Positions 21,643-57,602 are shown, numbered from the stretch's first letter. The stretch: DNA of 64,000 bases from a virus (IMGVR_UViG_3300011115_000934:97983-161982); one strand, 5' to 3'. Numbers and translations: made by a program. Notes: a model not told the origin generated them from the letters alone.

Positions 21643-23582
<1,940 letters not shown>

Positions 23583-28816: not shown

Positions 28817-30259
28817 ATGAAAGAAAAATTTCGTTATGTTAAGAAAGAGGATCGTAAGAAGATTCTTTTGTTATGCGATGATATTAGGATGCATTCCGGT
28901 ATCGCAACAATGGCCAGAGAGATTGTAGTAGGAACATCTCACCACTTTAATTGGATCAACCTAGGAGCAGCAATCAACCATCCAGAAGCAGGAAAGGGAT
29001 TTGACATCTCAGCTGAGGTAAACAAATTAACAGGAATAGAGGACTCAGATGTAAAAGTTCTTCCTAACAATGGTTATGGAGATGCAATGCAAGTTAGAGC
29101 TTTAATTGCCCAAGAACAACCAGATGCAATCTTTATCTTTACAGATCCAAGATACTGGGTATGGTTATTTGAAATAGAAAGAGAGATCAGAAATGAAATT
29201 CCTTTGATGTATTTAAACATTTGGGATGACTATCCAGCACCTCTTTACAATAAACCTTACTACGAGTCATGTGATTTGTTAATGGCAATTTCAAAACAAA
29301 CTAAAAATATTAATGAAATAGTTTTAGGAGAACAAGCAAAAGATAAAATCATTAAGTACGTTCCTCATGGAATAAATGATGAGCACTTCTTTCCAATGAC
29401 TTCGGTAGATCAATTGGAAGCATTAGGTGAGTTTAGAAAAAATTTATTCCAAGGAAAGGATATTGAATTCGTAGCATTCTTCAACTCAAGAAACATCAGA
29501 AGAAAATCTCCAGGAGATGTAATTCTTTCTTATAGAATGTTCTGTGATTTAATCGGAGAAGAAAAAGCTAAGAAGTGCGCTTTAGTAATGCATACACAAG
29601 CTGTAGACGAAAATGGTACAGACCTTTATGCAGTAAGAGAGGCAGTGTGTGATGACAGTTATGTAAATGTATTCTTCTCACAAGAAAGATTAGACACACC
29701 TCAAATTAATCTACTTTACAATATAGCAGATGTGGGATTACTTATTACTTCCAATGAAGGATGGGGATTATCTTTAACTGAAACTATGATGGCAGGTAAA
29801 ATGATTATTGCCAACGTAACAGGAGGTATGCAGGATCAAATGAGATTTACAGACGAGAACGGTAAGTGGATTGACTTCACTCCTGACTTCCCTTCTAACC
29901 ATAGAGGAACATATAAAGAGTGTGGAGAATGGGCAGTACCTGTGTTTCCTTCAAACATTTCAATGGTAGGTTCAGTTCCAACTCCTTACATCTTTGATGA
30001 TAGATGTGCACCAGAAGATGTAGCAAAAGCTTTAGAACAAGTTTACAACTTAGGAAAAGAAGAAAGAGATAGAAGAGGTGCAGCAGCTAGGGAATGGGTA
30101 ACTTCAGATGAATCAGGAATGTCAGCACGTCAAATGTGTGAGAATGTAATTGATTCAATGGATGAAACATTTGAAAAGTTTACTCCAAGATCTAGATTTG
30201 ATCTAATAAAAGTAACAGACAGACCAAAAAAATATATCACACATAAATTAATATACTAG
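28817..30259 (+). CDS. glycosyltransferase family 4-like (GT-B)
   Basis: EGWGLSLTETMMAGKMIIA = E-x7-E/GT1 signature. Confidence 0.7.
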   Translation: MKEKFRYVKKEDRKKILLLCDDIRMHSGIATMAREIVVGTSHHFNWINLGAAINHPEAGKGFDISAEVNKLTGIEDSDVKVLPNNGYGDAMQVRALIAQEQPDAIFIFTDPRYWVWLFEIEREIRNEIPLMYLNIWDDYPAPLYNKPYYESCDLLMAISKQTKNINEIVLGEQAKDKIIKYVPHGINDEHFFPMTSVDQLEALGEFRKNLFQGKDIEFVAFFNSRNIRRKSPGDVILSYRMFCDLIGEEKAKKCALVMHTQAVDENGTDLYAVREAVCDDSYVNVFFSQERLDTPQINLLYNIADVGLLITSNEGWGLSLTETMMAGKMIIANVTGGMQDQMRFTDENGKWIDFTPDFPSNHRGTYKECGEWAVPVFPSNISMVGSVPTPYIFDDRCAPEDVAKALEQVYNLGKEERDRRGAAAREWVTSDESGMSARQMCENVIDSMDETFEKFTPRSRFDLIKVTDRPKKYITHKLIY

Positions 30260-30261
30260 TT

Positions 30262-31548
30262 ATGAGTAAACCTACATTAGTAGTAAGCTGTCCAATCGAC
30301 ACTTACTCAGGATATGGAGCAAGAGCAAGAGATTTTGTACAATCAATTATAGATTTAGATAAGTACGATGTAAAAATATTGGGACAGAGATGGGGAGGAA
30401 CTAGATTTGGGTACTTAAAGGATCATGGAAACACTTCGTTAGCCTCAAGAATCATTCTACAACTAACACAACAACCAGACATTTGGATTCAAATCACAGT
30501 ACCAAATGAATTTCAAAAGGTTGGTAAGTATAACATTGGAGTAACAGCAGGAATTGAAACTACACTTTGTGATCCTTCTTGGATTCAAGGATGCAACAAC
30601 ATGGACTTGGTACTGGCATCAGCACAGCATGCTAAGAAAGTATTTGAAGAAAGTAAATTCAATATGCAAGATAATCAAACTGGACAAGTAACAGGTACAG
30701 TTGAGTTAAAAACAAAAGTAGAGGTTTTATTTGAAGGAGCTGACATAGAGAAGTATGCACCATTAGCATTACCAACTAAACTAGATCTTTCAAATATAGA
30801 GGAGCAGTTCTGCTTCCTAACAGTAGGACACTGGCTTCCAGGAGCATTAGGAGAGGATAGAAAGAATATAGGATACACTATTAAAGCATTCTTAGAAACA
30901 TTTAAGAATAAGAAAGCAGGACCTGCACTTATCTTAAAAGTACAAGCAGGATCAGGAACCTCTATTATGGATAGAGATGAGGTGTTAAATAGAATTGATT
31001 CAATCAGAAAGACAGTAAAAGGAAAATTACCAAACGTTTACCTGTTACATGGGGATATGTCTGATGCAGAAGTTAATGAACTATACAATCACGGTAAAGT
31101 AAAGGCAATGATCTCCTTAACAAAAGGAGAAGGATTTGGAAGACCCCTACTAGAATTCAGTTTAGTAAACAAACCAATCATAGCCTCAGGATGGTCAGGT
31201 CATATTGATTTCTTAGATAATCAATTCACTAAACAAATAGGAGGAACTCTGAATAATATACACCCATCAGCTGTAATTGATAAAATGATTTTAGCAGAGA
31301 GTCAGTGGTTCAGACCAGATGATGCTCTTGTAGGAAAGGCTTTGAAGGATGTGTTTGAGGATTACAAAGTTTATAAGGAATTAGCAAAGAGACAAGGACA
31401 TAGGTCTAGAACACAATTCTCGTATAATAAGATGAGAGAAACGCTAGATACTCTTCTAACACAATACATTCCTGAGTTTCCTAAGCAAGTTCAACTTAAA
31501 CTACCAACACTTAAGAAAATAGAACTACCAAAATTAAAAAAGATATAA
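30262..31548 (+). CDS. glycosyltransferase family 4-like (GT-B)
   Basis: EGFGRPLLEFSLVNKPIIA signature. Confidence 0.65.
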   Translation: MSKPTLVVSCPIDTYSGYGARARDFVQSIIDLDKYDVKILGQRWGGTRFGYLKDHGNTSLASRIILQLTQQPDIWIQITVPNEFQKVGKYNIGVTAGIETTLCDPSWIQGCNNMDLVLASAQHAKKVFEESKFNMQDNQTGQVTGTVELKTKVEVLFEGADIEKYAPLALPTKLDLSNIEEQFCFLTVGHWLPGALGEDRKNIGYTIKAFLETFKNKKAGPALILKVQAGSGTSIMDRDEVLNRIDSIRKTVKGKLPNVYLLHGDMSDAEVNELYNHGKVKAMISLTKGEGFGRPLLEFSLVNKPIIASGWSGHIDFLDNQFTKQIGGTLNNIHPSAVIDKMILAESQWFRPDDALVGKALKDVFEDYKVYKELAKRQGHRSRTQFSYNKMRETLDTLLTQYIPEFPKQVQLKLPTLKKIELPKLKKI

Positions 31549-32006
31549 TGGAAGAAAAAATGTCAATCTGTCCACATTGTGGAGGAAATGCTTGCTATGA
31601 ACAGCAAGTAAGCGAAGAAGTAACAACGAGCTTTTGCTTTGGTTGTGGATATTCAACTTCAACTCTAATGGTTGAGGGAGGAGAATTAGTAACCAAAACA
31701 CTAGAAGCATCACCGGAACTATATAAAGATCTTATGTTTATAAGTGAAGATAAAAAAGTTTGGTTCCCTTCAACAGTTACTCTTCCAAATAAAGGAATGG
31801 TATTCTTAGATGGAAATTCTAAAGACAGTTGGAAGTGGGCTGCAGTAAGCTCTATAGAGATTCTAGAAGAAGAGAAAGCAAAGTTCCCAAAAGGTCAGAC
31901 AACAAAAATGGATATGAAAAATATCAAACATTTTGACAAAGAAGACTTCATGGAAGCATTAGATGCTATCAACTTTTTTGATGTAGAAGTTGCAGAATCA
32001 AAATAG
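31548..32006 (+). CDS. zinc-ribbon protein
   Basis: CPHCGG...CFGCG. Confidence 0.45.
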   Translation: MEEKMSICPHCGGNACYEQQVSEEVTTSFCFGCGYSTSTLMVEGGELVTKTLEASPELYKDLMFISEDKKVWFPSTVTLPNKGMVFLDGNSKDSWKWAAVSSIEILEEEKAKFPKGQTTKMDMKNIKHFDKEDFMEALDAINFFDVEVAESK

Positions 32007-32024
32007 ATTTCGTATATTAATAGT

Positions 32025-32639
32025 ATGAAAATAAGTTATGCAATAACAGTTTGTAATGAATTGGAGGAAGTGAAAAGACTAGTCAACTTCCTCCTTTCCA
32101 ACAAACGAGAAGAGGATGAGATAGTAATACTTCTTGACCATTCAAATGGAAAAGATGAGGTATACAGGTACCTACTAACACTTCCAACCGAAGTACAGTG
32201 TAATAGAGATACATTCCAAGGACACTTTGCTGATTGGAAAAATCAACTAAACTCATACTGCAGTGGAGATTATATCTTCCAGATAGATGCTGATGAGATT
32301 CCTCATATCAATCTAATACAAAACCTACCTGAAATGCTGAAGACTAATGATGTCGATATGCTTAGAATCCCTAGAGTAAATACTGTAGAGGGCTTAACTC
32401 AAGAGCATATACAGAAGTGGGGATGGAATGTAAATGAAAAAGGATGGGTTAACTGGGCCGATTGGCAAATGAGAATATACAAGAATGCTCCTCACATTAA
32501 GTGGGTTAATAAAGTACATGAAGTATTAGAAGGATTTAAGATACACGGAATGCTTCCACCGGAAGAGGAATGGGCTTTATATCATCCAAAGACAATCGAC
32601 AGACAAGAGAAGCAGAATAATTATTACAACACTTTATAA
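32025..32639 (+). CDS. GT-A fold glycosyltransferase (family 2-like)
   Basis: N-terminal ISYAITVCNE..., DADE (DxD) motif. Confidence 0.55.
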   Translation: MKISYAITVCNELEEVKRLVNFLLSNKREEDEIVILLDHSNGKDEVYRYLLTLPTEVQCNRDTFQGHFADWKNQLNSYCSGDYIFQIDADEIPHINLIQNLPEMLKTNDVDMLRIPRVNTVEGLTQEHIQKWGWNVNEKGWVNWADWQMRIYKNAPHIKWVNKVHEVLEGFKIHGMLPPEEEWALYHPKTIDRQEKQNNYYNTL

Positions 32640-32647
32640 AATCAGTT

Positions 32648-33958
32648 ATGGATAGTATTTTAAATTTAGTACAAGAGTACATTACAAAAAAAGACAGTGA
32701 GAAGAAATGGGTAGCAGGAGAGGACTTAGTCCAATATGCAGGGCCTTACTTCGATGGCCAAGAAGCTCAGGCAGTTGTTAGGACTATGCTTGAAGGTTGG
32801 TTAGTTTTAGGAAAAGAAGGAGCAATGTTTGAAAGACGTTTCCCTAAGAAGCTAGGACAAAAGACTGGAGTTATTGTTAATAGTGGCTCAAGTGCTAATC
32901 TACTAATGATGTTAGCCTTAACATCTAAGAGAGGATTAAACCTACCAAAAGGTACAAAAGTAATTACTCCAATAGCAGGATTCCCAGCTACACTTAGTCC
33001 AACAATTCAAGTAGGCTTTACGCCAATATTTGTTGATATTGAATTAGAATCTCTAAACTTAGATCTAGATCAAGTAGAGCAAGCATGCATTGATCATCCA
33101 GATGCAAAGATAATTACTTTTGCTCACGTATTAGGTAATCCACCTAACATGGATCGATTAATGGAAATCGTAAACAAATACAATTTAATATTACTAGAAG
33201 ACTGCTGTGATGCTTTAGGAACAACTTACGATGGAAAGATGTTAGGATCATTTGGTAAAATGTCTTCATGTTCATTCTATCCAGCACACCACATTACAAT
33301 GGGTGAGGGAGGATTTGTAGCTTGTGGAGATGCTCATACAGAAAAGATTTTAAGAAGCTTTAGAGACTGGGGTAGAGGATGTTTCTGTCAAGGTAAAGCA
33401 AATGCTTTAGAATGTGGTTCCTGTGGAATAAGATTTAGTAACTGGTTGCCAAGTTTACCTAATGAGATCTTTGATCACAAATATACTTACGAAGAGATTG
33501 GTTACAACTTAAAGCCAACTGAGTTACAAGCAGCAATGGGTAATGTTCAGTTAGGTAAGTTGGAAGAGATTGGAGTACTAAGAAGAAGAAATCATAAAGC
33601 AATTGTTGATATCTTTAAAAAGTATGAGGACAAATTCATACTACCAAAGGCTACAGCTAAGTCAGATCCAGATTGGTTTGCAGTTGCATTAACACTAAGA
33701 GATGGAGTAGGGTTTACGAGATCTGAATTCTGCCAATACCTAGAGGCAAATAAGATTCAAACAAGACCATACTTCGCAGGTAACATTATGCTACAGCCAG
33801 GATACTCTCACTTAATTGATTCGAAAGAAGTAATAGAGAAGTTCCCAGTATCGAGAAAAGTAACAACAGATACTTTCTTCTTAGGATGCTCTCCAATTAT
33901 TACATTAGAACAAATTGAATATATTGGAACGATTGTAGACAAATTCTTCAACAAATAG
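32648..33958 (+). CDS. PMP-dependent NDP-4-keto-6-deoxyhexose 3-dehydrase (E1/DdhC-like) with Fe-S Cys motif
   Basis: DegT/AHBA-synthase fold; His replaces the Schiff-base Lys (SFYPAHHITMGEGG); CFC-x8-C-x2-C cluster (GRGCFCQGKANALECGSCG) like the E1 C-x-C-x7-C motif. Confidence 0.7.
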   Translation: MDSILNLVQEYITKKDSEKKWVAGEDLVQYAGPYFDGQEAQAVVRTMLEGWLVLGKEGAMFERRFPKKLGQKTGVIVNSGSSANLLMMLALTSKRGLNLPKGTKVITPIAGFPATLSPTIQVGFTPIFVDIELESLNLDLDQVEQACIDHPDAKIITFAHVLGNPPNMDRLMEIVNKYNLILLEDCCDALGTTYDGKMLGSFGKMSSCSFYPAHHITMGEGGFVACGDAHTEKILRSFRDWGRGCFCQGKANALECGSCGIRFSNWLPSLPNEIFDHKYTYEEIGYNLKPTELQAAMGNVQLGKLEEIGVLRRRNHKAIVDIFKKYEDKFILPKATAKSDPDWFAVALTLRDGVGFTRSEFCQYLEANKIQTRPYFAGNIMLQPGYSHLIDSKEVIEKFPVSRKVTTDTFFLGCSPIITLEQIEYIGTIVDKFFNK

Positions 33959-33959
33959 T

Positions 33960-34940
33960 ATGAGGATAGCATTTATGACAGAGATGGGGTTTGAGGGAAA
34001 GGTTCCCTCTAACCACTCTAACATGCGAACTGAGTTTGCTTGGATGCATACATTGGATGCTGACCACAAACACATATACAACTACAAAGAAGTAAAAGGC
34101 TATGATCACATCTTTATTATTTTTCCTAAAGGAAGAGTGTACTTAGATGCCTGTGGAAGTAGGTTAGTGGATCAAGTAAATCCTGTATCGGGATTACTAG
34201 CTTCAAATATAGTAGAGCAACTAAAACAGTATAACAAGAAAGTTTACATAGTACAAGAAGGTCCTCACTGGTTATGGAATGACTATGAGATGGCTGATCA
34301 GATTGAATTCTACAACATGCTTACATCTTCAGATGGTATCTTTGCACACAATGAACATGACGTAAAATACTATAAAGGAATGTTTCCTAACGTACCTGTG
34401 CACGTTATGCCTACTCTAATGATTGATTCTATAGTACAAGACATTCAACCTGTTACAGAGGAGAAAGTTATTATAGGAGGAAACTTTGCTAGATGGTATG
34501 GAGGAATGGAAAGCTTCACAGTAGCACAAAGATTACAAGTTCCAATATGGGGACAGACATCTCACGCAATGAGAGATGGAGAGGATCAATTAGTAAATCA
34601 TCTACCAAGAGTTATGTGGACAGATTGGATGAAACAACTAAGTTCATTCAAGTATGCTGTACATCTTATGCCAACCATAGCAGCAGGAACGTTTAGTTTA
34701 AATTGTGCTTACTTTGGTATTCCTTGTATAGGAAATGAGAAAGTAGACACACAAAGATTATGTCATCCAGACCTAGCAGTTGACGTAGAGGATGTAGATA
34801 AAGCAGCAATGCTGGCTGAAAGGCTGAGTTATGATGAAGAGTTCTACCAAGAGTGCAGCAAAACAGCTCAGGAGAATTATAAAAAATACTACAGCCAAGA
34901 GTTGTTTAAACAGAAAATAAATAGTATAATAGTATTATGA
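33960..34940 (+). CDS. hypothetical protein (sugar-island)
   Basis: 326 aa, no motif recognised. Confidence 0.5.
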   Translation: MRIAFMTEMGFEGKVPSNHSNMRTEFAWMHTLDADHKHIYNYKEVKGYDHIFIIFPKGRVYLDACGSRLVDQVNPVSGLLASNIVEQLKQYNKKVYIVQEGPHWLWNDYEMADQIEFYNMLTSSDGIFAHNEHDVKYYKGMFPNVPVHVMPTLMIDSIVQDIQPVTEEKVIIGGNFARWYGGMESFTVAQRLQVPIWGQTSHAMRDGEDQLVNHLPRVMWTDWMKQLSSFKYAVHLMPTIAAGTFSLNCAYFGIPCIGNEKVDTQRLCHPDLAVDVEDVDKAAMLAERLSYDEEFYQECSKTAQENYKKYYSQELFKQKINSIIVL

Positions 34941-37318
34941 TAGTACAAATAACAATGGTTAGGAATGAAAAATTCCTAATAGAAAAACTACTTCCTATAT
35001 GGACAAAATATGCAGATGGCTTTGTATTTTTAGTTGATACCTCCAATGATGGAACAGAGGAGTTTCTTAGAGAAGCAGCTAAGCAGTATAACATTCTGGA
35101 TATAATAGTTCAAGAAGCAGACGATAATACTTTATGGGTAGCTTCGGAAGTAAGACAAAAAATGTTTGACACAGCTAAGCAGTATACAAATAAGATAGTA
35201 TGTCTAGATGCAGATGAATATTTTGACGGTTCCATGACTAAAGAGGAATTAGAAAACACATTAGACTCACACCAAGATACCCTATTTGATCTGAGATGGG
35301 TTCAGTACACATCTACTAATACTATCAGAGTTGATGGCCCTTGGAAAAATAACACAAAAGGTAGGATAGGAGTGTTCAATAAAGAATACACCTTCAGGTA
35401 TGACACAATGCATGCAACTCACTTACCAATCCCACAGAACCAATACATGTTTCCTGAAGAGAGTTTGTTTATAGCTCATCTACAGTGGTTAGATAGAAAC
35501 ATAGTCGGAATAAAGCAGTACTGCTATAAAGTGCAAGACTATGCAAGTCATGTTAAGTTTGGAGCTAATGTTGTAGAAAAGGAGGCGTATGATGCTTCTA
35601 TAAATGATTTTAATTGGGAAGAGGAGTACTACAACTATCCACTTAAAATACAAGAAGACATTTACGAACACATGATTAATGGAGACTACTATAGAACAGA
35701 TATCATAAAACAGTATACAAAAGAATTAGATATTCCAAATTTAGGAGATTGGGGATTGAATATTCACGATAGTGTTCCAATGTACTTCTGTACAGGTGCA
35801 GATGAAAAGCACTATCCACTTCTACTAAATATGATAGGAAGTATTCATAAATATAACTTTTACGATACTGTAGAGATTAGAATATACGATTTAGGATTAA
35901 ATGAGAGACAGAAACAAGAACTGAAGAACCTAAAGAAAGTTAACATATACCAAGTAGAACAAACTAACTCAGAAATATTAAAAGATGTCCAGACAAATCC
36001 AACTAGATTTGTTAAAGGACTGTTCTCATGGAAACCAGTTCTAATAAAGGACTCACTGGACCACTGTCCGTACGTTCTATACCTAGATGCTGGAACTGAG
36101 ATAAGAAAGCCTTTGAATAGTTTATTTAAACATATAATTCAAAATAAGTATCTGTTTTTTGATTGTGGACATTCAATAAGATGGATGAGTACAGATTATA
36201 ATATTCAAAGTTTGGATCTACAATCTAAAGAAAATTCTTGGATACTTAAAGACGATACCTTTGGAGTTGATGCTGGGTTTATGGGCTTGTCGAGAGAAGT
36301 CTATGATGAGTTTGTACTACCTATGTATGAGCTATCTAAAAATCTTAAAAACTTCGAAGACAATGGTTCTTGCCCTGATGGATGGGGTTCAGGGAGACAC
36401 GACCAAACACTGTTTAGTATATTAGCTAGAAAACTAAACTATAGTATTATAGCAAGTAAGGATGATTACAAGGACTGTAAGTTAGTAGTAGATGGAAAGG
36501 ATATAGAATTTCACATTACTCATGCTAGAGCAGATGTTAAAGACAGTACAGTTGTCTATAGATCTAGGTGGGATTTGTCCTATAGTAAGTACAAAGACAA
36601 TGTAGCATCTATAAAAAGGGATTATATACTTTCTGTAATAACTGCTATAGGAAGTCTTAGTAAGTATGAGAAATTCTTAGAACAATACTTTGAGAATATA
36701 TTACAGCAAATAGGTTTCTCAAGATTTGAATTTATAATAGTATACAGTGAGTGGAGTAGTATTTTTGATAAGTACACTAACTATGTAAATATTAAGTTCG
36801 TAAAAGAAGATCAGCAGAAAGGAGTATACAATGCTTGGAACATAGGAATACTTAATTCAACTACAGAATACATTACAAACTGGAACGTAGATGACATCAG
36901 ATTTGATATCAGCACCATTACAAAGTACCATGCACTTTCTAAAAATATAAATACAGATTTAGCATACAGCTACTATATAGGAATAGATGAGAGTGAAATA
37001 GGCATAGTTGACCTGAATGAGCAGCAATATATTGAGTACCCTGACAATTTTCACGAGCAGGCCCTATCGATGTGTATGGCAGGTCCTGATCCAATGTGGA
37101 GAAAATCTACTCACATATTTTATGGATACTTTGATTATACCAACTATAGTATAATAGGAGATTGGGAAATGTGGGTACGGATGGCTAAGAATGGATTAAC
37201 CTTCACACTACTTCCTTACGTATTAGGTGTCTATGTAGATCACAAGGACACAGTTAGTAAGAGTAGTGAGGAAAAAGTGGAACAACAAAAACAAAACTTA
37301 CGAAGACAGTATACGTAA
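34937..37318 (+). CDS. 793-aa multidomain glycosyltransferase (several GT-A-like modules)
   Basis: N-terminal GT2-like segment (VFLVDTSNDGT, DADE) and further nucleotide-diphospho-sugar-transferase-like segments. Confidence 0.55.
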   Translation: MIVQITMVRNEKFLIEKLLPIWTKYADGFVFLVDTSNDGTEEFLREAAKQYNILDIIVQEADDNTLWVASEVRQKMFDTAKQYTNKIVCLDADEYFDGSMTKEELENTLDSHQDTLFDLRWVQYTSTNTIRVDGPWKNNTKGRIGVFNKEYTFRYDTMHATHLPIPQNQYMFPEESLFIAHLQWLDRNIVGIKQYCYKVQDYASHVKFGANVVEKEAYDASINDFNWEEEYYNYPLKIQEDIYEHMINGDYYRTDIIKQYTKELDIPNLGDWGLNIHDSVPMYFCTGADEKHYPLLLNMIGSIHKYNFYDTVEIRIYDLGLNERQKQELKNLKKVNIYQVEQTNSEILKDVQTNPTRFVKGLFSWKPVLIKDSLDHCPYVLYLDAGTEIRKPLNSLFKHIIQNKYLFFDCGHSIRWMSTDYNIQSLDLQSKENSWILKDDTFGVDAGFMGLSREVYDEFVLPMYELSKNLKNFEDNGSCPDGWGSGRHDQTLFSILARKLNYSIIASKDDYKDCKLVVDGKDIEFHITHARADVKDSTVVYRSRWDLSYSKYKDNVASIKRDYILSVITAIGSLSKYEKFLEQYFENILQQIGFSRFEFIIVYSEWSSIFDKYTNYVNIKFVKEDQQKGVYNAWNIGILNSTTEYITNWNVDDIRFDISTITKYHALSKNINTDLAYSYYIGIDESEIGIVDLNEQQYIEYPDNFHEQALSMCMAGPDPMWRKSTHIFYGYFDYTNYSIIGDWEMWVRMAKNGLTFTLLPYVLGVYVDHKDTVSKSSEEKVEQQKQNLRRQYT

Positions 37319-37331
37319 CAAACTATAGCTT

Positions 37332-38126: not shown

Positions 38127-38142
38127 TATAAACACATAAAAA

Positions 38143-39948: not shown

Positions 39949-40011
39949 TTTTGGATATTGTAGTGGTAGTTAAAGTAGTATTAAGTGTAAAATTATAATT
40001 TAAAATAGAAA

Positions 40012-40968
40012 ATGACAAAAGTAGTTTACATAACAGGTTGTTTAGGATTTATAGGATCTTACGTAACAAGAGCATGCCTCGAGAAAGGATGGTATGTTAA
40101 AGGAGTTGATAAGAAGACCTATGCAGCCAATAAAGATTTATTAAAAGAGTTTAAGGAGTATGAAAACTTTTCATTTGTAGATTGTGACATAAATGATTTA
40201 AAGTTTCTATACGACTGTGACTATATAATTAATACAGCAGCCGAGACGCACGTAGGCAACTCTATAATGAACTCAGACGTATTTGTACATTCAAACGTAA
40301 ATGGAGTTCATAACTTACTAGAGTTAATAAAAAACCATAGAGGAGAGAATGCAACCAAGCCTACACTACTTCACTTTAGTACAGATGAAGTATATGGAGA
40401 TATTGAGGAAGGAGAGCATATAGAAACTGATATACTTAAACCATCTAACCCATACTCAGCTACTAAAGCAGCAGCAGATATGTTAGTAACAGCTTGGGCA
40501 AGAACTTACAAGCTTCCCTATATTATAATAAGACCAACAAACAATTATGGAATAGGACAGTATGTAGAAAAACTAATACCTAAAGCCTGCAAGTACCTAA
40601 GACTTGGTAAAAAGATTCCTTTACACAATAATGGTACTCCAATCAGAAACTGGCTCCATGCTCAAGATACGGCTGAGGCTGTCATCACAATCATCGAATC
40701 AGGAGTACAGAATGAAATCTATAATATTTGTGGAGGATTTGAGCAAAATAATTTGGATACTATCAAAAAAGTTCTTATATTATATAATGAAAACAAAGAG
40801 CATGTGTTAGAGGATTTTGTAGACTTTTCATGTGACAGACAAGGACAGGATGTTAGGTATGCTTTGAATGATGATAAACTAAGAGCATTAGGATGGAAGC
40901 CTACAATCGACTTTGACTCAGAACTAAAACATGTTGTAAAGTATTATAGAGAAAAATTTATATGGTAA
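40012..40968 (+). CDS. NDP-hexose 4,6-dehydratase/epimerase (extended SDR)
   Basis: GCLGFIGS Rossmann motif, YSATK (YxxxK). Confidence 0.7.
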   Translation: MTKVVYITGCLGFIGSYVTRACLEKGWYVKGVDKKTYAANKDLLKEFKEYENFSFVDCDINDLKFLYDCDYIINTAAETHVGNSIMNSDVFVHSNVNGVHNLLELIKNHRGENATKPTLLHFSTDEVYGDIEEGEHIETDILKPSNPYSATKAAADMLVTAWARTYKLPYIIIRPTNNYGIGQYVEKLIPKACKYLRLGKKIPLHNNGTPIRNWLHAQDTAEAVITIIESGVQNEIYNICGGFEQNNLDTIKKVLILYNENKEHVLEDFVDFSCDRQGQDVRYALNDDKLRALGWKPTIDFDSELKHVVKYYREKFIW

Positions 40969-42716
40969 AAGTAAGTGATGTAATCGTTCAATACCTTAAG
41001 GCTAATAACATAGAAATTGTATTTGGGATAATTGGTTCAGCCAACTCTCACATATTCAATTCAATATTAGAAGAAGGGAGTATCAAATTGGTATCGGTAC
41101 ATCACGAACAAGCTGCTGTAATGGCTATGGGAGCTTACTATCGTTCAACTGGAAAGATGGCTGTTGCATTAGTAACAGCAGGAGGAGGAGCCTCAAATGC
41201 TTCAACAGGAATTCTTTCCAACTGGGCTGACTCTATTCCTGGAATTATTATCTCAGGACAGGAACAGTCGTATTACCTAGATGAGTACAGAGATATGAGA
41301 ATGTTCGGAGTACAAGGCTATGATGCAGTAAAGGCATATGAAAACTGTACTAAGATGTCGCATGTAATTACAGAAGATACTCTACATACAATAATGCCAT
41401 TCGCATTTGCTTTAACACAAGAAGGAAGACCAGGTCCAGTATTCTTAGAAGTACCCTTCGACGTTCAGAGTAAGATGGTAGAAGATAGAGGAGTACAGAT
41501 TGGAACAACCACCTTTACAAATCCTCACATATCCTCTAGTACCGATTACATACTAGCAGCACTAGCACAAGCAAAGCGACCAGTAGTGTTAGGAGGTCAC
41601 GGTGTTAAGCTGGCCAAAGCAGAAGGAGCTTTCAAACAATTTGTAGAAGAGTACAATGTACCAACAGTATTAAGTTGGTCAGCAGTGGACTTGCTTGATG
41701 ATAACAATCTAAACTATTTTGGAAGACCAGGAGTTCAAGGACAGAGAGCAGCTAACTTTATAGTACAGAACTCTGATTTACTAATTGTATTAGGAAGCAG
41801 ACTATCACTACTACAAACAGGATACAAGAGAGAGGACTTTGCTCCAAATGCTAATATTATTCATGTTGACATAGATGATGCAGAGATTAGAAAGTTTAAA
41901 GGAAAGAATATTGTAGCAGATGCTGGAGATATCCTTAGTAGCTTGAACTCTAAAGTAAGAGTTGAACTTGATATAGAGGAATGGATCACATACTGTAATC
42001 AAATCAAACAAAAGTATCCTTTGGTAATGCCTGAGCATTTAGCAGATCCTACTAATTCATATACATTTATTGATAAATTCTCACAAAAAGTACCAGATAA
42101 CTATACAATTGTTACTGATATGGGAACAGCATTGTTGAGTGGATTCTATGGATGGAGAATTAAACCTAACCAAAAAATGTTTACTTCTCTAGGATTAGGA
42201 GAGATGGGATACGGATTAGCAGCAGCAGTCGGAGCAGGGTTTGGACAAAGACCAGTGATGTGTTTAAACTGTGATGGAGGTATGATGATGAACCTACAAG
42301 AGTTGCAAACAATCAAGACACACAACCTTCCAGTAAAGATTATTATATTCAACAATGACGGATACCTAATGATCAAACATACCCAGAATATGTTATTCAA
42401 AGGAGCTCGTACTTGTGTAGATCAACAATCAGGAGTAACATTACCTGACTATAGAAAAGTAGCACACGCATTTGATTTTGAATACTTCACAGAGGATAGG
42501 GTAGATGACTTCCTAGCATTTGAAGGCCAGGCTATCATGGAAGTGTTTATGAACCCAGATCAAGAATTTATTCCTAAAGTAAGAGGAATGAAATTAGAAG
42601 ACAATACAATTCAAGCAGGACTGCTAGAAGAAATGTCACCACTACTACCATTAGAACAAATAGAACAAGCTATGGTTGCAGGTATTAATCAAAGAAGTAA
42701 AACAGTTGTAAGATGA
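40962..42716 (+). CDS. thiamine-diphosphate-dependent carboligase (acetolactate-synthase large-subunit/YerE-like)
   Basis: Three-domain ALS layout, GGGASNASTGI and TPP-binding GLGEMGYGLAAAVGAG...NNDGY. Confidence 0.8.
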   Translation: MVKVSDVIVQYLKANNIEIVFGIIGSANSHIFNSILEEGSIKLVSVHHEQAAVMAMGAYYRSTGKMAVALVTAGGGASNASTGILSNWADSIPGIIISGQEQSYYLDEYRDMRMFGVQGYDAVKAYENCTKMSHVITEDTLHTIMPFAFALTQEGRPGPVFLEVPFDVQSKMVEDRGVQIGTTTFTNPHISSSTDYILAALAQAKRPVVLGGHGVKLAKAEGAFKQFVEEYNVPTVLSWSAVDLLDDNNLNYFGRPGVQGQRAANFIVQNSDLLIVLGSRLSLLQTGYKREDFAPNANIIHVDIDDAEIRKFKGKNIVADAGDILSSLNSKVRVELDIEEWITYCNQIKQKYPLVMPEHLADPTNSYTFIDKFSQKVPDNYTIVTDMGTALLSGFYGWRIKPNQKMFTSLGLGEMGYGLAAAVGAGFGQRPVMCLNCDGGMMMNLQELQTIKTHNLPVKIIIFNNDGYLMIKHTQNMLFKGARTCVDQQSGVTLPDYRKVAHAFDFEYFTEDRVDDFLAFEGQAIMEVFMNPDQEFIPKVRGMKLEDNTIQAGLLEEMSPLLPLEQIEQAMVAGINQRSKTVVR

Positions 42717-43570
42717 AAATAAAAGTAGCAATTATTGGTACAGGTAATATCGGAACAGATCTATTACTGAAAGCCCTAAAGACAGACTTCATGGATGTAG
42801 TAGCATTTGTAGGTCGTAGGTTAGATTCGGATGGAATGCTAACAGCTAAGAAACATAGCATATTAATATCTGATCAAGGTATTCAATACTTTATTGATAA
42901 TCCAAATTGTTGTGATGTGGTATACGATTGCACATCAGCAGCAGATGCTATTGAGCATGCTAAGTTATTTAAACAACAAGGAATAAAAGTAATTGACTTA
43001 ACTCCAGCCAAGGTAGGAGATATGTGTGTACCGGATGTTAACTCTGAGATTATCTTAACAGATGGTAATGTTAATATGATTACTTGTGGAGGACAAGCTT
43101 CCATGCCAATGTTACACTTATTATCAAAAGAGTGTACAGGATTAGAATATATTGAAGTAGTCTCTCAAATTGCATCTAAGAGTGCAGGAATGGCTACAAG
43201 GATAAATGTAGACAACTATATCCAAACAACACAGAAGGCTATTGCAAAGTTTACAGGTTGTTCAAATAATAAAGTAATCTTAAATCTTAATCCTGCTGAG
43301 CCTTGTGTTGATATGCAAACAACAATCTTCATCAAAGCAAAGAAAGTTAATTTTGAAAACTTAACAGAGAAGGTTTTAGATAAGATTGAAGAGTTAAGAA
43401 CTTACATCCCTTACTACGAAATGGTTCTTCCTCCAACTATGAACGACAGTGGAGTAGTTGTAATGAGTATCAAAGTAAGAGGTACAGGAGATTACCTTCC
43501 AGCATATGCAGGTAACCTAGATATTATTAACTGTGCAGCAATTAAAGTAACAGAAAGATTAGTAAAATGA
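42713..43570 (+). CDS. acetaldehyde dehydrogenase (acylating), DmpF/MhpF-like
   Basis: N-terminal MKIKVAIIGTGNIGTDLL and catalytic-Cys loop ITCGGQASMP as in DmpF; ATGA overlap with the upstream TPP-enzyme gene. Confidence 0.7.
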   Translation: MKIKVAIIGTGNIGTDLLLKALKTDFMDVVAFVGRRLDSDGMLTAKKHSILISDQGIQYFIDNPNCCDVVYDCTSAADAIEHAKLFKQQGIKVIDLTPAKVGDMCVPDVNSEIILTDGNVNMITCGGQASMPMLHLLSKECTGLEYIEVVSQIASKSAGMATRINVDNYIQTTQKAIAKFTGCSNNKVILNLNPAEPCVDMQTTIFIKAKKVNFENLTEKVLDKIEELRTYIPYYEMVLPPTMNDSGVVVMSIKVRGTGDYLPAYAGNLDIINCAAIKVTERLVK

Positions 43571-44565
43571 GAAAAGTAATCATAACAGATTCAAGTCTTA
43601 GAGATGGAAATCATAGCGTTAAGCATACTATCAGTTTAGATAGTATAGCAAGGTATTGTCAATTTGCTGATAAGGCAGGAGTACCAATTGTAGAGGTAGG
43701 TCATGGAAATGGATTAGCAGCTTCTTCTCTACTTGTAGGTAAGTCTGTTAACACAGATGAGGAAATGCTAATAACTGCTAAAAACAATTTGAAGAATTCC
43801 AAACTAGGAATTCACATGATACCAGGACTAGCAACACTGGAACATACTAGAAAGGCTATTGACCTAGGAGTAGATGTAGTAAGAGTAGCAACACATTGTA
43901 CTGAAGCAACTTTGTCTAAGTCTCACATCGAAGCATTAGCAAAAGCAGATGTGGAAGTGTTCGGAGTGCTAATGATGAGTGCCTTGATCACTCCTCAGGA
44001 ATTACTAGAGCAAACTAAAATAATGGAAGGGTACGGAGCTAGGGCTATTATTATAATGGACTCTACAGGAACATACCTACCATTTGATGTACAACAAAGA
44101 ATCTCTTTACTAAAAAGCAACCTAAGCATACCAGTAGGATTTCATGCTCACAACAACTTAGGATGTGCAGTAGCAAATTCCTTAATAGCAGTAGAGTTTG
44201 GAGCAGATTATATTGACGGATGTATTAGAGGTTTTGGAGCTGGAGCAGGTAACGCTCCACTAGAACTTCTTATACCAGTACTAGAACAAAGCGGCTTCCA
44301 AGTAGGAATAAACTTTCAAGAGACAATCAAAGAAGCAGATAATGCAATGGACTACTTGGTTCCTTCAGCACCTATCACAACACCAATTAACATATTAACA
44401 GGACTTAAAAAACTATTCTCAGGATTTGAAAAGCCAATTGTAAGTGCTTCTAAACTATACGGAATAGAGTACTCATCTCTTATCTTTGAATTAGGAAATA
44501 GAAAGTTAGTAGCCGGGCAAGAAGATCTTATATTGGAAATAGCACAGAAGCTAAAAAAGAAATAG
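43567..44565 (+). CDS. 4-hydroxy-2-oxovalerate aldolase-like (DmpG/MhpE, DRE-TIM metallolyase)
   Basis: ITDSSLRDGNHSVKH metal-site signature; ATGA overlap with the dmpF-like gene. Confidence 0.7.
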   Translation: MRKVIITDSSLRDGNHSVKHTISLDSIARYCQFADKAGVPIVEVGHGNGLAASSLLVGKSVNTDEEMLITAKNNLKNSKLGIHMIPGLATLEHTRKAIDLGVDVVRVATHCTEATLSKSHIEALAKADVEVFGVLMMSALITPQELLEQTKIMEGYGARAIIIMDSTGTYLPFDVQQRISLLKSNLSIPVGFHAHNNLGCAVANSLIAVEFGADYIDGCIRGFGAGAGNAPLELLIPVLEQSGFQVGINFQETIKEADNAMDYLVPSAPITTPINILTGLKKLFSGFEKPIVSASKLYGIEYSSLIFELGNRKLVAGQEDLILEIAQKLKKK

Positions 44566-45477
44566 ATGAACGTAATCATTACAGGAGGTAATGGATTTTT
44601 AGGATCTAACATTGCTAGAAGGCTTTTAAAACAAAATCATAAGGTTTATATATTTTCAAACAATATAAATAACATAGAGGATATACTACCTGAGGTTATA
44701 TTTGACTATAGTGACACTAAGTCTTTGCCTGCCTTTGAAAAAAAGATAGAGACATTCTCACCAGACATAGTAATCCATTGTGGATGGAGTGGAGGAAATA
44801 GCTATGCAGATACAAACAGCGTAGATCAATTCTACGAAAATGTAGATCCGAGCATATCCCTACTACAGCTTTTAGGTAAACTTAACAAGAAGCCTAAATT
44901 TGTAGGCTTTGGAAGCTTTGCAGAATATGGAAACATTAGTACGCCAGTAAGTGAAGAAGTGCAGGAAATACCTACAAACTTATATGGACTCTCTAAATAC
45001 ACTTTTAAAAAGTATAGTGAGATGTTATGTAGCCGTTACGAAATGGAATGGGTATGGATAAGACCTTGCTACGTATACGGACCAGGAGATGTAAGCACAA
45101 GACTACTTCCTAGTATAGTAGCAAAATTTTTAAGTAATGAAACAGTAGTACTTGATGAGTGTACCTCCATTGCAGATTATATTTACATAGATGATTTTGT
45201 TAATTCAATTTATTTCCTTATATTAACAGAACACACAGGGGTATACAACATATGCTCAGGAAAGCAGTACAAGATAAGAGATATAGTTGAGCAAGTTCAC
45301 AAACAAGTAGGAAGCAGTAGCACTATTAAGTTTGATAGTACTTTAGCAAGATCCTCAACATATTCGTACATATGTGGAAGTAGGAGTAAGTTAGACAATG
45401 CTATAGGAAATCTAGAACAAATATCTTTAACTGAAGGATTAGAAAAAGTAATAATTAGTAATAAATTAAGTAAATGA
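44566..45477 (+). CDS. NAD(P)-dependent epimerase/reductase (SDR)
   Basis: TGGNGFLGS, YGLSKY (YxxxK). Confidence 0.7.
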   Translation: MNVIITGGNGFLGSNIARRLLKQNHKVYIFSNNINNIEDILPEVIFDYSDTKSLPAFEKKIETFSPDIVIHCGWSGGNSYADTNSVDQFYENVDPSISLLQLLGKLNKKPKFVGFGSFAEYGNISTPVSEEVQEIPTNLYGLSKYTFKKYSEMLCSRYEMEWVWIRPCYVYGPGDVSTRLLPSIVAKFLSNETVVLDECTSIADYIYIDDFVNSIYFLILTEHTGVYNICSGKQYKIRDIVEQVHKQVGSSSTIKFDSTLARSSTYSYICGSRSKLDNAIGNLEQISLTEGLEKVIISNKLSK

Positions 45478-46112
45478 AAAACGAAGTTGTAGAAAAAGAA
45501 GGAGGCTGGATTTGGCCTAAGAGTGACGAGAATAGTTGGGAAGGTCAGAACGAGCACAGTAGCCTTGCTAAATATGTACTCCCTTATGTAAAAAATAATA
45601 GAGTAATGATTCAAGCAGGAGGTAACTGTGGATTTATATTAAGTACCTTTGTTGAACACTTTGATAATGTATACACATTTGAACCAGACCCTATAAACTT
45701 TTACTGCTTAAATCAAAATGTTACTTCACCTAACGTTATTAAAATGCAATGCTGCCTAGGGAAGGAAAACTCACCAGTAAAAGTACAACAATTAGACAGA
45801 CCAGGAAGACTAAGAGATACAGGTGGAGTGCACGTAGAAGGGTCAGGAGTAACTCCTACCATTATTATCGACAACTTGAATTTACAAGCATGTGACTTAA
45901 TCCAATTAGATGTGGAAGGCTACGAACTTAATGCATTACTTGGAGCAGTGGAGACTATTAAGAAGTACAAACCAGTACTGTGTATAGAATTTTGTGAAAA
46001 ATGGCTAAACAGATACGAAACTACATCAAGTAGCATTGAAGCTCTTTTAGCTGAATTAAACTACAAGCATGTGGAATCGTACGGAGTAGATAGGATTTTT
46101 ATACCACAATAG
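45474..46112 (+). CDS. FkbM-family methyltransferase
   Basis: IQAGGNCGF SAM-binding motif, family-typical length. Confidence 0.55.
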   Translation: MKNEVVEKEGGWIWPKSDENSWEGQNEHSSLAKYVLPYVKNNRVMIQAGGNCGFILSTFVEHFDNVYTFEPDPINFYCLNQNVTSPNVIKMQCCLGKENSPVKVQQLDRPGRLRDTGGVHVEGSGVTPTIIIDNLNLQACDLIQLDVEGYELNALLGAVETIKKYKPVLCIEFCEKWLNRYETTSSSIEALLAELNYKHVESYGVDRIFIPQ

Positions 46113-46130
46113 TATATAGACTAAACAAAG

Positions 46131-47402
46131 ATGAAGCATCCAATTAGCTTTTGTATTAATACAGCAGTAAATGAATTAGACTACCTAAAACTACTACTAA
46201 AGTCACTAAAGGAGAACCTAAAGCACGACTACCATGAGGTAGTTGTGTTTATAGATTCGGATAATCAAGATACCTTCGAATGGCTACTTACTCAAAAATC
46301 AGAATTTAAAGATTTAAAAATACTTCGAAACATACTACCAGTATGCTATAGTCCGGTTAGGAATATAAATGAAATGTTTAAGTTTGCTTCTCATGAAATA
46401 GTTTCTTATATACAATCTGATATGGTTATTTGTAAGGACTATGACAAGTACTTACTAAAGCATATCAAGCCTAATATGATTCTGTCTAGTACTAGGATCG
46501 AACCACCATTGCATGGGCCTGGTTCCGAGAAGCACACTATGGACTTTGGGCTAAATCCTTCTGAGTTTCGCTATGATGAGTTTTTAAAGTATTGTGATGC
46601 AGTTAGAGAAGATAAGGTAACAAGTTACTACTTTGCACCATTCACCTTATATAAAGAGGTTTGGAATAAGATAGGAGGACAGGACACAACTTTTAGACGT
46701 TCAAGAGATGACTCGGATATCCTAAACAGATTTACACTCTCAGGAGTAGATATTGCTCAGACATGGGAAGCACTAGTATACCACTTTACTTGCACTTCAA
46801 GTAGAGGACAAGGTTGGTATGAAGCAGGTAATGCTAAGGCACAGGAGAAGGTACGGCTTCAAGCAAAAGCAGATGAAGTAGAATTAACCCGAATATTCAG
46901 GAAATGGGGAGAATTTAGTCATGGACATCCTGCACAATACTATTACAACATATCATCTAATATTAATATAGATGTTGAAGATGCAAATCTATATTCCAAT
47001 GTTGAGATGTTCTTTAGTAGGAATTACATAAATTCTCATAAGATGTATAACGCATTCATCAATCAGGACGAGCACGAGTACGCCAACATTCTGTATAACT
47101 ACTCAGATGAGCAGTGGAAAGAGTATAGCTATATGTGTAATCTACAAAAACTAGAAGATAGAGTTTGTGTAGGAGAACCACAAGGAGATATATTAGTTTC
47201 CTTCAACCTTAGCAGCATTACTCAAAATACATTTGATAATGTTCTAAGCAAACTACAACACATAGTGCATGAGGTAGAACCAGGAGAGTATGAGTTTGAA
47301 GGATTTACTTTTTCCATAAAAAATAAACGAAACATAATACAAGACAAACTAAAAGTAATCAACCCAGAAATAAAACCAGAACATTTGTACGAGGTGTATT
47401 AG
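46131..47402 (+). CDS. GT-A glycosyltransferase (family 2-like) with C-terminal extension
   Basis: ISFCINTAVNE...VVVFIDSDNQD. Confidence 0.5.
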   Translation: MKHPISFCINTAVNELDYLKLLLKSLKENLKHDYHEVVVFIDSDNQDTFEWLLTQKSEFKDLKILRNILPVCYSPVRNINEMFKFASHEIVSYIQSDMVICKDYDKYLLKHIKPNMILSSTRIEPPLHGPGSEKHTMDFGLNPSEFRYDEFLKYCDAVREDKVTSYYFAPFTLYKEVWNKIGGQDTTFRRSRDDSDILNRFTLSGVDIAQTWEALVYHFTCTSSRGQGWYEAGNAKAQEKVRLQAKADEVELTRIFRKWGEFSHGHPAQYYYNISSNINIDVEDANLYSNVEMFFSRNYINSHKMYNAFINQDEHEYANILYNYSDEQWKEYSYMCNLQKLEDRVCVGEPQGDILVSFNLSSITQNTFDNVLSKLQHIVHEVEPGEYEFEGFTFSIKNKRNIIQDKLKVINPEIKPEHLYEVY

Positions 47403-54780: not shown

Positions 54781-54783
54781 TAT

Positions 54784-55333: not shown

Positions 55334-55336
55334 ACC

Positions 55337-56360: not shown

Positions 56361-56378
56361 GGGACTAAAGACAAACAT

Positions 56379-57597: not shown

Positions 57598-57602
57598 AAA
57601 AG

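Follow-up and report, generated by a model that had tools for sequence, protein, structure and literature searches.

Glycosylation by virus-encoded enzymes is well established in giant viruses and in some mycobacteriophages, few in number; in phages of Gram-negative aquatic bacteria, large sets of sugar genes have only been noted and their roles guessed at. To our knowledge, acyl-branched sugars have so far been found only in bacterial lipopolysaccharide (LPS) and in antibiotics. A stretch of viral DNA of 64,000 nucleotides (IMGVR_UViG_3300011115_000934:97983-161982, the window) was analyzed for an 18.6-kb island of nucleotide-sugar and glycosyltransferase (GT) genes at 28817-47402 on the + strand, which had been picked out beforehand from the sequence alone (the original prediction). 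The gene set of this island, as judged by homology, matches an erwiniose-type pathway for acyl-branched 3,6-dideoxyhexoses. Across related phages the locus has a conserved head, a hypervariable middle and a divergent terminal GT2 gene, and it varies in the manner of bacterial serotype loci.

In the erwiniose cluster of Pectobacterium atrosepticum the carboligase ErwE takes 4-hydroxy-2-oxopentanoate, not pyruvate, as donor and acts on a 4-keto-3,6-dideoxyhexose (Steitz et al., 2022, PMC9306805). Supply of this donor is assigned to a BphI/BphJ-like pair adjoining ErwE, after which the side chain is reduced by a short-chain dehydrogenase/reductase (SDR) (PMC9306805). The window shares with this cluster a 4,6-dehydratase, an E1, a YerE-like carboligase, the adjoining BphI/BphJ-like pair and an SDR, and the same predicted logic of an aldol product used for thiamine diphosphate (ThDP)-dependent branching at C-4 followed by reduction. 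It differs in lying in a phage genome, in having an RmlB-like 4,6-dehydratase and an extra FkbM gene, and in lacking E3 and Wzx, Wzy or export genes. Between the window proteins and the closest bacterial counterparts found, among which ErwE does not figure, identity is only 40-53%. JanthE of Janthinobacterium sp. HH01 (PDB 8rph, 8rpi, 8rpj), a YerE-like enzyme with an unusual CDG cofactor motif (PMC12247030), takes 4-hydroxy-2-oxovalerate as substrate (PMC12188165), and its physiological substrates are unknown; the window carboligase matches it over the full length and shares the motif. YerE of the Yersinia yersiniose A pathway is associated with an E1, like the window enzyme, but has pyruvate as donor, a GDG motif and no DmpF/DmpG (DmpFG) partners. 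In the literature consulted, which includes PMC12247030, YerE-like enzymes have been described as serving bacterial LPS, with no virus mentioned.

Among viruses, chlorovirus and mimivirus glycosylation (PMC5408694, PMC9614988) likewise relies on virus-encoded GTs that are soluble, with neither signal peptide nor transmembrane segment, and on nucleotide-sugar enzymes of the virus itself. Alongside a conserved core of GTs there are strain- or clade-variable ones, as the window lineage has a head found in 31/31 islands and 154 protein families in the middle, and the multi-domain GT of the window has a parallel in A064R. Those viruses infect eukaryotes, their genes are scattered instead of being gathered in one cassette locus, and for them attachment of the glycan to the virion has been demonstrated. 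Mycobacteriophages, tailed phages too, have GTs of their own that attach sugars to proteins of the capsid and tail tube (Freeman et al., 2023, as cited in PMC12619734). They have few GTs and methyltransferases, host sugars and Actinobacteria hosts, and rare-sugar synthesis and cassette polymorphism of this scale are not known to have been described for them. The cyanomyoviruses P-SSM2, S-SCSM1 and S-SCSM2R (PMC12801897) offer the likeness of large aquatic myoviruses with at least 20 sugar genes, many GTs and nucleoside diphosphate (NDP)-sugar epimerases. Their genes belong to Kds, Rml and GT25 families and are usually read as host-surface modifiers; they have no acyl-branched pathway and a head-and-cassette layout is not described. 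With 22-24 cell-wall/LPS genes and 13 GTs recorded in cyanomyoviruses (PMC12801897), the view that phages normally carry one or two sugar genes overstated the rarity of the island, and its size alone is not unprecedented. Bacterial O-antigen and capsule loci and flagellin or pilin glycosylation islands also have conserved boundaries round mosaic, polymorphic sugar genes; the window locus is viral and, compared with O-antigen and capsule loci, is without initiating transferase, flippase, polymerase and ligase.

Putative branched-sugar genes and their relatives

The + strand coding block was found to be uninterrupted and to span exactly 28817-47402. It holds 16 open reading frames (ORFs; Table 1) with no space for extra ones, where twenty genes had been predicted. 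Coding density is 99% and the widest intergenic gap is 63 nt (39949-40011). The genes are tightly packed; to call them mostly overlapping was an overstatement, 6 of the 15 junctions being overlaps and 1 abutting. Profile annotation of each ORF with Pfam and NCBIfam returned a sugar pathway, not unrelated housekeeping enzymes, and bore out both the position of the island and its content of soluble nucleotide-sugar and glycosylation enzymes. The nucleotidyltransferase (NTase), 4,6-dehydratase, E1-type 3-dehydrase, ThDP enzyme and FkbM methyltransferase were all recovered; of two SDR enzymes predicted, only one was found besides the 4,6-dehydratase. The count of at least six GTs is acceptable, with Pfam GT support for five (one having 2-3 GT-A domains) and u326 as a probable sixth. 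Transmembrane-like segments were found in 0/16 island proteins, in agreement with the predicted absence of a GT membrane anchor.

E1 scored 452.7 bits against the NCBIfam RfbH equivalog (cutoff 423) and aligned over its full length with Yersinia E1 (PDB 3bcx, E = 7.6e-102). As in Yersinia E1, the Lys that would form the Schiff base is replaced by His (YPAHH), and the cluster of Cys residues is kept; the ratio of nonsynonymous to synonymous divergence (pN/pS) is 0.014. The 4,6-dehydratase (46DH) scored 309 bits against NCBIfam dTDP-glucose 4,6-dehydratase, under the cutoff of 365, and 70.8 bits against CDP-glucose 4,6-dehydratase. The ThDP enzyme (TPP in Table 1) matched JanthE (PDB 8rph) at E = 1.8e-150, the best acetolactate synthase being matched at 1.3e-75, and carries the same non-canonical CDG cofactor motif as JanthE (residue 437, within VMCLNCDGGMMMN). 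The SDR gene directly follows the aldolase gene, the same place as that of the SDR in the Mucilaginibacter comparator locus L148 (20% identity), and its product is a candidate for the side-chain ketoreductase (the YerF/ErwF role). The FkbM protein probably O-methylates the sugar or glycan, to go by its family; its gene co-travels with SDR and GT2L in other phage islands.

Bacterial relatives of the ThDP enzyme were sought in one genome per species from 185,579 bacterial and archaeal species. None exceeded 44% identity, and the closest, at 41-44%, lie in 14 loci of Mucilaginibacter, Pedobacter, Duganella, Massilia, Rugamonas and others. Within 10 kb, 13/14 of these loci contain both DmpF (47-51%) and DmpG (51-53%), and 13/14 contain E1 (40-41%). 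The CDG motif was present in all 7 of the loci checked. The order TPP-DmpF-DmpG is kept in 12/13 of the closest pair-carrying loci, the pair lying upstream in the remaining one (L152). ThDP relatives at 33-37% identity are accompanied by E1 and, except in L225, by no DmpFG pair; the motif was canonical GDG in the 3/3 in which it was found. The clustering of ThDP enzyme, DmpFG and E1 thus recurs in bacterial loci, so the association behind the functional inference is conserved.

The comparator locus L148 has a textbook E3 (FAD_binding_6, NAD_binding_1, Fer2). With this protein as query for the E3 (DdhD/AscD) reductase, tblastn gave no match in the 64-kb window (E<=10) or in the 31 related islands and their flanks. 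For SpnQ, an E1 homologue, a host reductase substitutes for a dedicated E3. The near-complete deoxysugar pathway of the original prediction holds only in part: the genes, with the DmpF/DmpG pair that it had overlooked, match the erwiniose-type scheme, but E3 is absent and the NTase is a divergent fusion missing from sister islands.

Table 1. Genes of the island and its upstream neighbour, with positions in the window, predicted products and supporting matches (PMP, pyridoxamine phosphate)
Gene	Positions	Strand	Predicted product	Support
E1	32648-33958	+	NDP-4-keto-6-deoxyhexose 3-dehydrase (RfbH/DdhC/AscC type, PMP and [2Fe-2S])	
46DH	40012-40968	+	NDP-hexose 4,6-dehydratase, RmlB-like	Pfam GDP_Man_Dehyd and Epimerase
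TPP	40962-42716	+	YerE/ErwE/JanthE-like ThDP-dependent carboligase	Pfam TPP_enzyme N, M and C
DmpF	42713-43570	+	DmpF/BphJ/ErwJ-like acetylating acetaldehyde dehydrogenase	NCBIfam TIGR03215 equivalog 322.4 bits (cutoff 282); Pfam AcetDehyd-dimer 1.8e-40
DmpG	43567-44565	+	DmpG/BphI/ErwI-like 4-hydroxy-2-oxovalerate (pyruvate) aldolase	NCBIfam TIGR03217 equivalog 338.9 bits (cutoff 286); Pfam HMGL-like, DmpG_comm
SDR	44566-45477	+	NAD(P)-dependent epimerase/reductase, 303 aa	Pfam Epimerase 8.5e-38
FkbM	45474-46112	+	FkbM-family methyltransferase, 212 aa	Pfam Methyltransf_21 4.3e-12; NCBIfam fkbM_fam above cutoff
GT1a	28817-30259	+	GT-B (GT4-like) glycosyltransferase, 480 aa, first head gene	Pfam Glycos_transf_1 2.6e-8; PHROG 2170 glycosyltransferase
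GT1b	30262-31548	+	Second GT-B (GT4-like) glycosyltransferase, 428 aa, head gene	Pfam Glycos_transf_1 and Glyco_trans_1_4
h152	31548-32006	+	152 aa, N-terminal CxxC...CxxC zinc ribbon, head gene	
GT2s	32025-32639	+	Minimal GT-A (GT2) glycosyltransferase, 204 aa, last head gene	Pfam Glycos_transf_2 1.6e-10
u326	33960-34940	+	Probable GT-B glycosyltransferase, 326 aa	tblastn E = 1e-13 to immuto annotated mannosyltransferase
GT2x2	34937-37318	+	Multi-domain GT-A glycosyltransferase, 793 aa	Pfam Glycos_transf_2, two stretches
u264	37332-38126	+	264 aa, travels with GT2x2 and NT-HAD	PHROG 13607 (unknown function) 9e-13
NT-HAD	38143-39948	+	Fusion, 601 aa: sugar-1-phosphate nucleotidyltransferase (1-225), HAD-type phosphatase (229-335), unknown C-terminal domain (343-601)	
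GT2L	46131-47402	+	Terminal GT2 glycosyltransferase, 423 aa, semi-conserved 3' end	Pfam Glycos_transf_2 3.1e-5
PD-(D/E)XK	27185-28126	+	Nuclease, upstream neighbour of head	Pfam PDDEXK_1 2e-22

Conserved head and variable cassettes

IMG/VR was searched for syntenic islands with GT1a (137 relatives, 57-96% identity) and with the first downstream gene (61 relatives), and both anchors were stitched to resolve 31 complete islands in related phages. All 31 begin GT1b-h152-GT2s, with GT1a intact in 29 and fragmented in 2. The fragmented copies are split into two or three ORFs (L030+L090, type c4173; L029+L092, type c2841), which could reflect a pseudogene, programmed frameshifting or a sequencing error. 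The 31 islands, 6.4-20.5 kb long, fall into 22 architectures. They hold 154 protein families, of which 109 occur in a single architecture, and cassette breakpoints are sharp and at gene boundaries. Flavobacterium phage immuto (NC_055915) has a 10.8-kb island with a 7-kb aminosugar cassette where the window has 14.7 kb; identity between the two is high through GT2s and resumes at 47407.

In the head, GT1a, GT1b and h152 have the same order in window and immuto and their proteins are 88-92% identical. GT1a (pN/pS 0.09) is 92% identical to its immuto counterpart, 37-55% to that of Microcystis phage Mel-JY01 and 26% to that of Rhodothermus phage RM378, and is weakly similar to the chlorovirus GT4 B736L (PDB 3oy2, E = 0.0014). 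GT1b, a distant paralogue of GT1a (28% identity over 152 aa), was found in 31/31 resolved islands and is 43% identical to the Mel-JY01 protein. GT2s, also in 31/31, is more divergent than the other head genes (45-88% identity, 59% to immuto, pN/pS 0.29-0.39) and marks the 5' recombination boundary. A confident AlphaFold model was obtained for h152 (pLDDT 90), and 3837 relatives were retrieved from databases, every one unannotated. Structural neighbours in PDB or BFVD were limited to one orthologue, and the protein is, by its model, a candidate new fold. The h152 gene is consistently linked to both GT-B enzymes in immuto-like phages and absent from Mel-JY01.

The Mel-JY01 locus (L227, 82271-89690) comprises genes for PD-(D/E)XK nuclease (41%), GT1a, which is annotated there as two genes, GT1b and GT2s (39%), followed by a short variable stretch and a GT2L-like gene; a GuaB gene lies between the nuclease gene and GT1a. 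No literature on Mel-JY01 was found. The GT1a-GT1b pair recurs in RM378 (L228, 9165-11893), which like Mel-JY01 is a distant myovirus whose host belongs to another phylum.

The middle of the window island is made up of two parts. In three sister contigs the run E1-46DH-TPP-DmpF-DmpG-SDR-FkbM-GT2L is present at 77-99% amino-acid identity without any NTase, and the sole difference from the window is a 6.0-kb block (33963-39988; u326, GT2x2, u264, NT-HAD) standing in place of 1.8 kb. The last three genes of the block have homologues that occur together in a more distant phage contig (L244). Since sister islands lack the NTase, and NT-HAD co-travels with GT2x2 and u264, the island is read as two sugar modules behind a common head. 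The NTase as start of the deoxysugar pathway was downgraded on the same grounds, and NT-HAD is probably not the entry enzyme of that pathway.

For u326, whose family is present in 11/31 islands, no Pfam match was obtained at E<0.01, and WsaF_C was matched weakly (E = 0.077). A domain-wise scan divided GT2x2 into an N-terminal GT2-like domain, a weak central GT8/DUF1647-like region and a C-terminal GT2 domain; the protein matched PDB 6p61, a glycosyltransferase, at E = 0.009, and its homologues in phage islands L244 and L259 are 59-79% identical to it. The u264 homologue in L244 (53%) lies beside those of GT2x2 and NT-HAD. NT-HAD matched Pfam NTP_transferase and Hydrolase_3, PDB 9iqw and 4evw, PHROGs 3980, 1238 and 24015, NCBIfam archaeal GlmU-type NTase (5e-16) and EcbF/BcbF capsule phosphatase (1.6e-5), the NTase domain, a doubtful candidate for the glucose-1-phosphate cytidylyltransferase (DdhA) role, being nearest to archaeal GlmU/RmlA-type enzymes. 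No significant PDB or Pfam match was obtained for u264, the C-terminal domain of NT-HAD or the middle of GT2x2. The terminal GT2L family is present in 27/31 islands and has diverged strongly: the window protein is 30% identical to that of immuto and 78% to that of c2275, and pN/pS reaches 0.58.

A YerE-like enzyme is carried by 190 IMG/VR contigs. In 75 of 80 examined, a 46DH homologue of at least 43% identity lies within 8 kb, and most of these homologues are 60-92% identical. Other cassettes pair a GDG-type ThDP enzyme (34% identity) with an HpcH/HpaI aldolase, or with a NeuB-like synthase and a small HAD phosphatase; further ones have PDH-E1-like alpha and beta subunits beside E1 and 4,6-dehydratase. 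Such alternative-donor cassettes were seen at loci L018, L022, L023, L029 and L058 (types c4860, c1685, c2841) and at L041, L048 and L064. Their gene content suggests that they make other acyl-branched sugars, with longer or acetyl branches. Also represented among cassette genes are GT10/GT11 fucosyltransferase-like genes, WecE-type aminotransferases, acetyltransferases and methyltransferases. One related island (L082) has a SET-domain (lysine methyltransferase-like) ORF at 13269-13583, between SDR and terminal GT2.

The genes of the branched-sugar module are found at 89-99% identity in three other phage contigs. Island genes have pN/pS of 0.01-0.24 at a pS of about 0.4, equal to the backbone pS; this purifying selection at backbone-level synonymous divergence indicates working genes that have resided in phages for a long time. 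E1 is 99% identical in amino acids to its counterparts in sister phages, which reflects constraint, not recent transfer, because pS is 0.38. Capture of the genes from a host in recent times was rejected, since even the closest bacterial homologue of the ThDP enzyme is only 44% identical.

Genomic setting

The flanks of the island are syntenic with immuto and about 30 environmental phage contigs. Compared at the protein level, genes on both sides are collinear with NC_055915, mostly at 50-94% identity; they include QueD/QueE/FolE/DpdA-like 7-deazaguanine genes, PolA, GroES/GroEL, a GH19 endolysin, a holin and the PD-(D/E)XK nuclease. Megablast matches to the window were to phages only. The phage GroES/GroEL genes (21643-23582) encode proteins 94% and 92% identical to those of immuto.

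The PD-(D/E)XK nuclease gene precedes GT1a in related loci (39-94% identity) and is treated here as context only. Between it and the island lies a GIY-YIG and NUMOD1 homing-endonuclease-like ORF (28175-28618, 147 aa), absent from immuto and the other contigs compared and placed exactly at the 5' edge of the recombination hot spot. A second GIY-YIG (SegE-like) ORF (12170-12988), with no immuto counterpart, is inserted just upstream of QueE.

The original prediction placed the island next to the DNA-modification module. The 7-deazaguanine genes lie at about 11-18.3 kb, 10.5 kb upstream, with PolA, GroES/EL, endolysin/holin and nuclease genes in between. This module (10900-18300) is unlike that of immuto: its DpdA-like gene (17464-18264) shares only 27% identity with DpdA3 of immuto, homologues of the immuto DpdN formyltransferase, QueF-like gene and thymidylate kinase were not found in the window, and an Endonuclease_NS gene (14253-14831), a dCTP-deaminase-like gene (15506-16012) and an AAA_18 kinase gene (16370-16837) are present. 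From this gene content the window phage probably carries a guanine modification other than fdPreQ1.

At the far end of the window (54500-64000) GC is 0.30-0.33 with strong GC skew, and only short ORFs occur, few of at least 80 aa; immuto has a series of small hypothetical genes at the corresponding place. A search of the 64-kb window for tRNAs found none. Scans for sigma-70 promoters and intrinsic terminators across the island gave sites no commoner than in shuffled sequence, so expression timing is not inferable from them.

Acceptor of the glycan

The reading ranked first, on which belief and doubt are evenly balanced, is cytoplasmic, phage-encoded glycosylation of a phage protein, probably a virion protein, by the three-part locus of an immuto-like Flavobacterium myovirus. 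Among the 469 proteins of the 31 islands (22 architectures), none has more than one hydrophobic segment, and no initiating transferase, flippase, polymerase, ligase or export gene was found. Homologues of Wzx, Wza and Wzz are absent from the window and every island; the bacterial comparator locus has all three around the same sugar genes. With no membrane or export proteins, a path to the cell surface is thus missing from the phage's own gene set. Three of the four head genes (GT1a, GT1b and GT2s) and a terminal GT2 are kept in a Microcystis cyanophage as well as in the Bacteroidota phages, and GT1a is kept in the phage of Rhodothermus, too; this conservation across host phyla suggests that the acceptor belongs to the phage. 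A precedent is the chlorovirus capsid protein, which is glycosylated in the cytoplasm by soluble virus-encoded GTs, some conserved and some strain-specific (PMC5408694); mimiviruses and the mycobacteriophages mentioned above are further ones.

Under this reading the head (GT1a, GT1b, h152, GT2s) would recognize an acceptor that is conserved and build the invariant inner part of the glycan, the hypervariable cassette would supply strain-specific activated sugars and extra transferases, and the terminal GT2 would add the cassette-specific sugar. The starting NDP-glucose, probably host dTDP-glucose, with NT-HAD as a possible source, would be converted to the 4-keto-6-deoxy sugar by 46DH, and its 3-OH would be stripped by E1 with electrons from a host reductase, since no E3 is encoded. 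In a parallel branch, acetyl-CoA would be converted to acetaldehyde by DmpF and joined to pyruvate by DmpG to give 4-hydroxy-2-oxopentanoate. The CDG-motif ThDP enzyme would decarboxylate this product and put the C4 unit on the C-4 ketone, after which the SDR would reduce the side-chain ketone and FkbM would methylate. Further sugars would be added by the u326, GT2x2, u264 and NT-HAD block, and the virion protein or proteins would be glycosylated in the cytoplasm before assembly. The analysis shows the gene content, the family assignments, the layout of conserved head and variable middle, the purifying selection and the lack of membrane or export components; we infer the reaction order, the nucleotide that carries the sugar, the end product and, most of all, the acceptor.

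Several points weigh against this account. The 46DH is RmlB-like, whereas CDP sugars serve the characterized pathways to yersiniose and erwiniose; there is no E3; and the SDR is only distantly related to the bacterial reductases in the ErwF position. For these three reasons the exact product may differ from erwiniose. The ThDP enzyme was compared with JanthE and with bacterial loci of the same architecture. No glycoprotein, glycosylation motif or acceptor gene was identified, the structural genes lying outside the window; the AlphaFold2 model of GT1a (25-sequence alignment, 83-95% identity) was unusable (pLDDT 49.9), and neither it nor the h152 structure search yielded an acceptor clue. O-antigen GTs are usually soluble, so GTs without an anchor do not discriminate. 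Only the missing flippase, polymerase and initiating transferase discriminate, and a phage could borrow those of its host. The closest homologues of the sugar enzymes lie in bacterial Wzx-dependent polysaccharide loci.

Remodelling of the host envelope is ranked second, as an unlikely but serious competitor. Nucleotide sugars and soluble GTs of the island would extend the undecaprenyl-linked intermediates of the host's O-antigen or capsule by a new repeat unit or a side branch, with the host's initiating transferase, flippase and polymerase, and the surface of the infected cell would be altered, for instance to block superinfection or to prevent re-adsorption to debris; cassette diversity would then follow host serotype diversity. 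It keeps its place because O-antigen GTs are commonly soluble, peripheral proteins and because the nearest ThDP, DmpF, DmpG and E1 homologues lie in bacterial Wza/Wzz/Wzx polysaccharide loci. The conserved-flank, variable-middle layout is like that of O-antigen loci, and cyanophage LPS gene clusters are usually interpreted in this way (PMC12801897). However, no initiating phosphoglycosyltransferase or polytopic membrane protein, nor any of the other membrane steps, is encoded in the 22 architectures, and conservation of GT1a, GT1b and GT2s in phages of Bacteroidota and Cyanobacteria is hard to square with a host-specific lipid-linked acceptor. The phage also looks lytic (lysis cassette nearby, no integrase in the window), which would leave little time for surface turnover.

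Another soluble acceptor, such as a cytoplasmic protein of the host (a defence or translation factor that is taken over or inactivated), a small molecule, or a free or secreted oligosaccharide, is improbable. Every enzyme is soluble, and the orphan fold of h152 could be an adaptor for anything. One host protein, however, would not need 6-20 kb of rare-sugar chemistry or 22 alternative cassettes, diversifying cassettes imply a product exposed to an external, discriminating selective agent, and no transporter is encoded.

DNA is disfavoured as acceptor, and strain-variable glycans on a modified base (a 7-deazaguanine derivative or hydroxymethylpyrimidine), made against restriction, are very improbable. 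Such variable glycans would make sense against type IV restriction, the 7-deazaguanine module lies 10 kb upstream, the PD-(D/E)XK nuclease gene is always before the head, which lies among replication genes, and phage GTs that place diverse glycans on DNA are known (Pyle et al., 2024, as cited in PMC12619734). Against this, HPLC-UV-MS of immuto DNA gave only dA, dC, dT and fdPreQ1, the last replacing all G (Hutinet et al., PMC10516641); no glycosylated base was seen, although low-abundance ones may have escaped the analysis, and the GT1a, GT1b and h152 proteins of immuto are 88-92% identical to those of the window (59% for the small GT2). Pfam scans of the 16 proteins gave only generic Glycos_transf_1 and Glycos_transf_2 matches for the GTs, with no match to T4 alpha- or beta-glucosyltransferase; no hydroxymethylase was present among the genes scanned; and at least 6 GTs with rare-sugar pathways go far beyond anything described for DNA. 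The original prediction had called the target not evident among DNA, virion glycoprotein and host surface; this holds in that the acceptor is not shown, and no longer holds for DNA in view of the immuto nucleoside analysis.

Misassembly of host DNA onto phage DNA, which the likeness to bacterial polysaccharide gene clusters might suggest, was rejected as scarcely credible: GC is flat (0.33-0.37) with no step at 28.8 or 47.4 kb and no skew break, flanks and the GT1a-GT1b-h152 genes are collinear with the isolate genome NC_055915 at 73-92% protein identity (59% for the small GT2), the same insertion point is filled in more than 100 independent viral contigs, the module recurs in three phage contigs, pS equals that of the backbone, and bacterial homologues are distant.

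Three features of the locus appear to be new: a virus-borne acyl-branched-sugar pathway, several alternative donor-supply modules at one phage locus, and a serotype-locus-like organization of a phage glycosylation island. The four donor-supply modules (DmpFG, HpcH/HpaI aldolase, NeuB-like synthase, PDH-E1-like) amount to a natural combinatorial library of branched-sugar pathways, useful for biocatalysis. Cultured immuto isolates carry a different cassette on the same backbone, which makes the question of the target directly testable. It is a tentative proposal, held with somewhat more doubt than belief, that an abundant lineage of aquatic T4-like phages builds complex glycans from rare sugars, acyl-branched ones included, and displays them on the virion by way of a serotype-like recombination hot spot, in which an acceptor-specific head is combined with dozens of interchangeable cassettes. 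If true, phage populations would carry glycan 'serotypes' like bacterial O-antigens, maintained by selection from outside, for which lectins or defences on the host surface, grazers and adhesion to particles are candidates. The serotype-like layout implies strong diversifying selection on a phage-made glycan and gives a handle on phage population structure in metagenomes.

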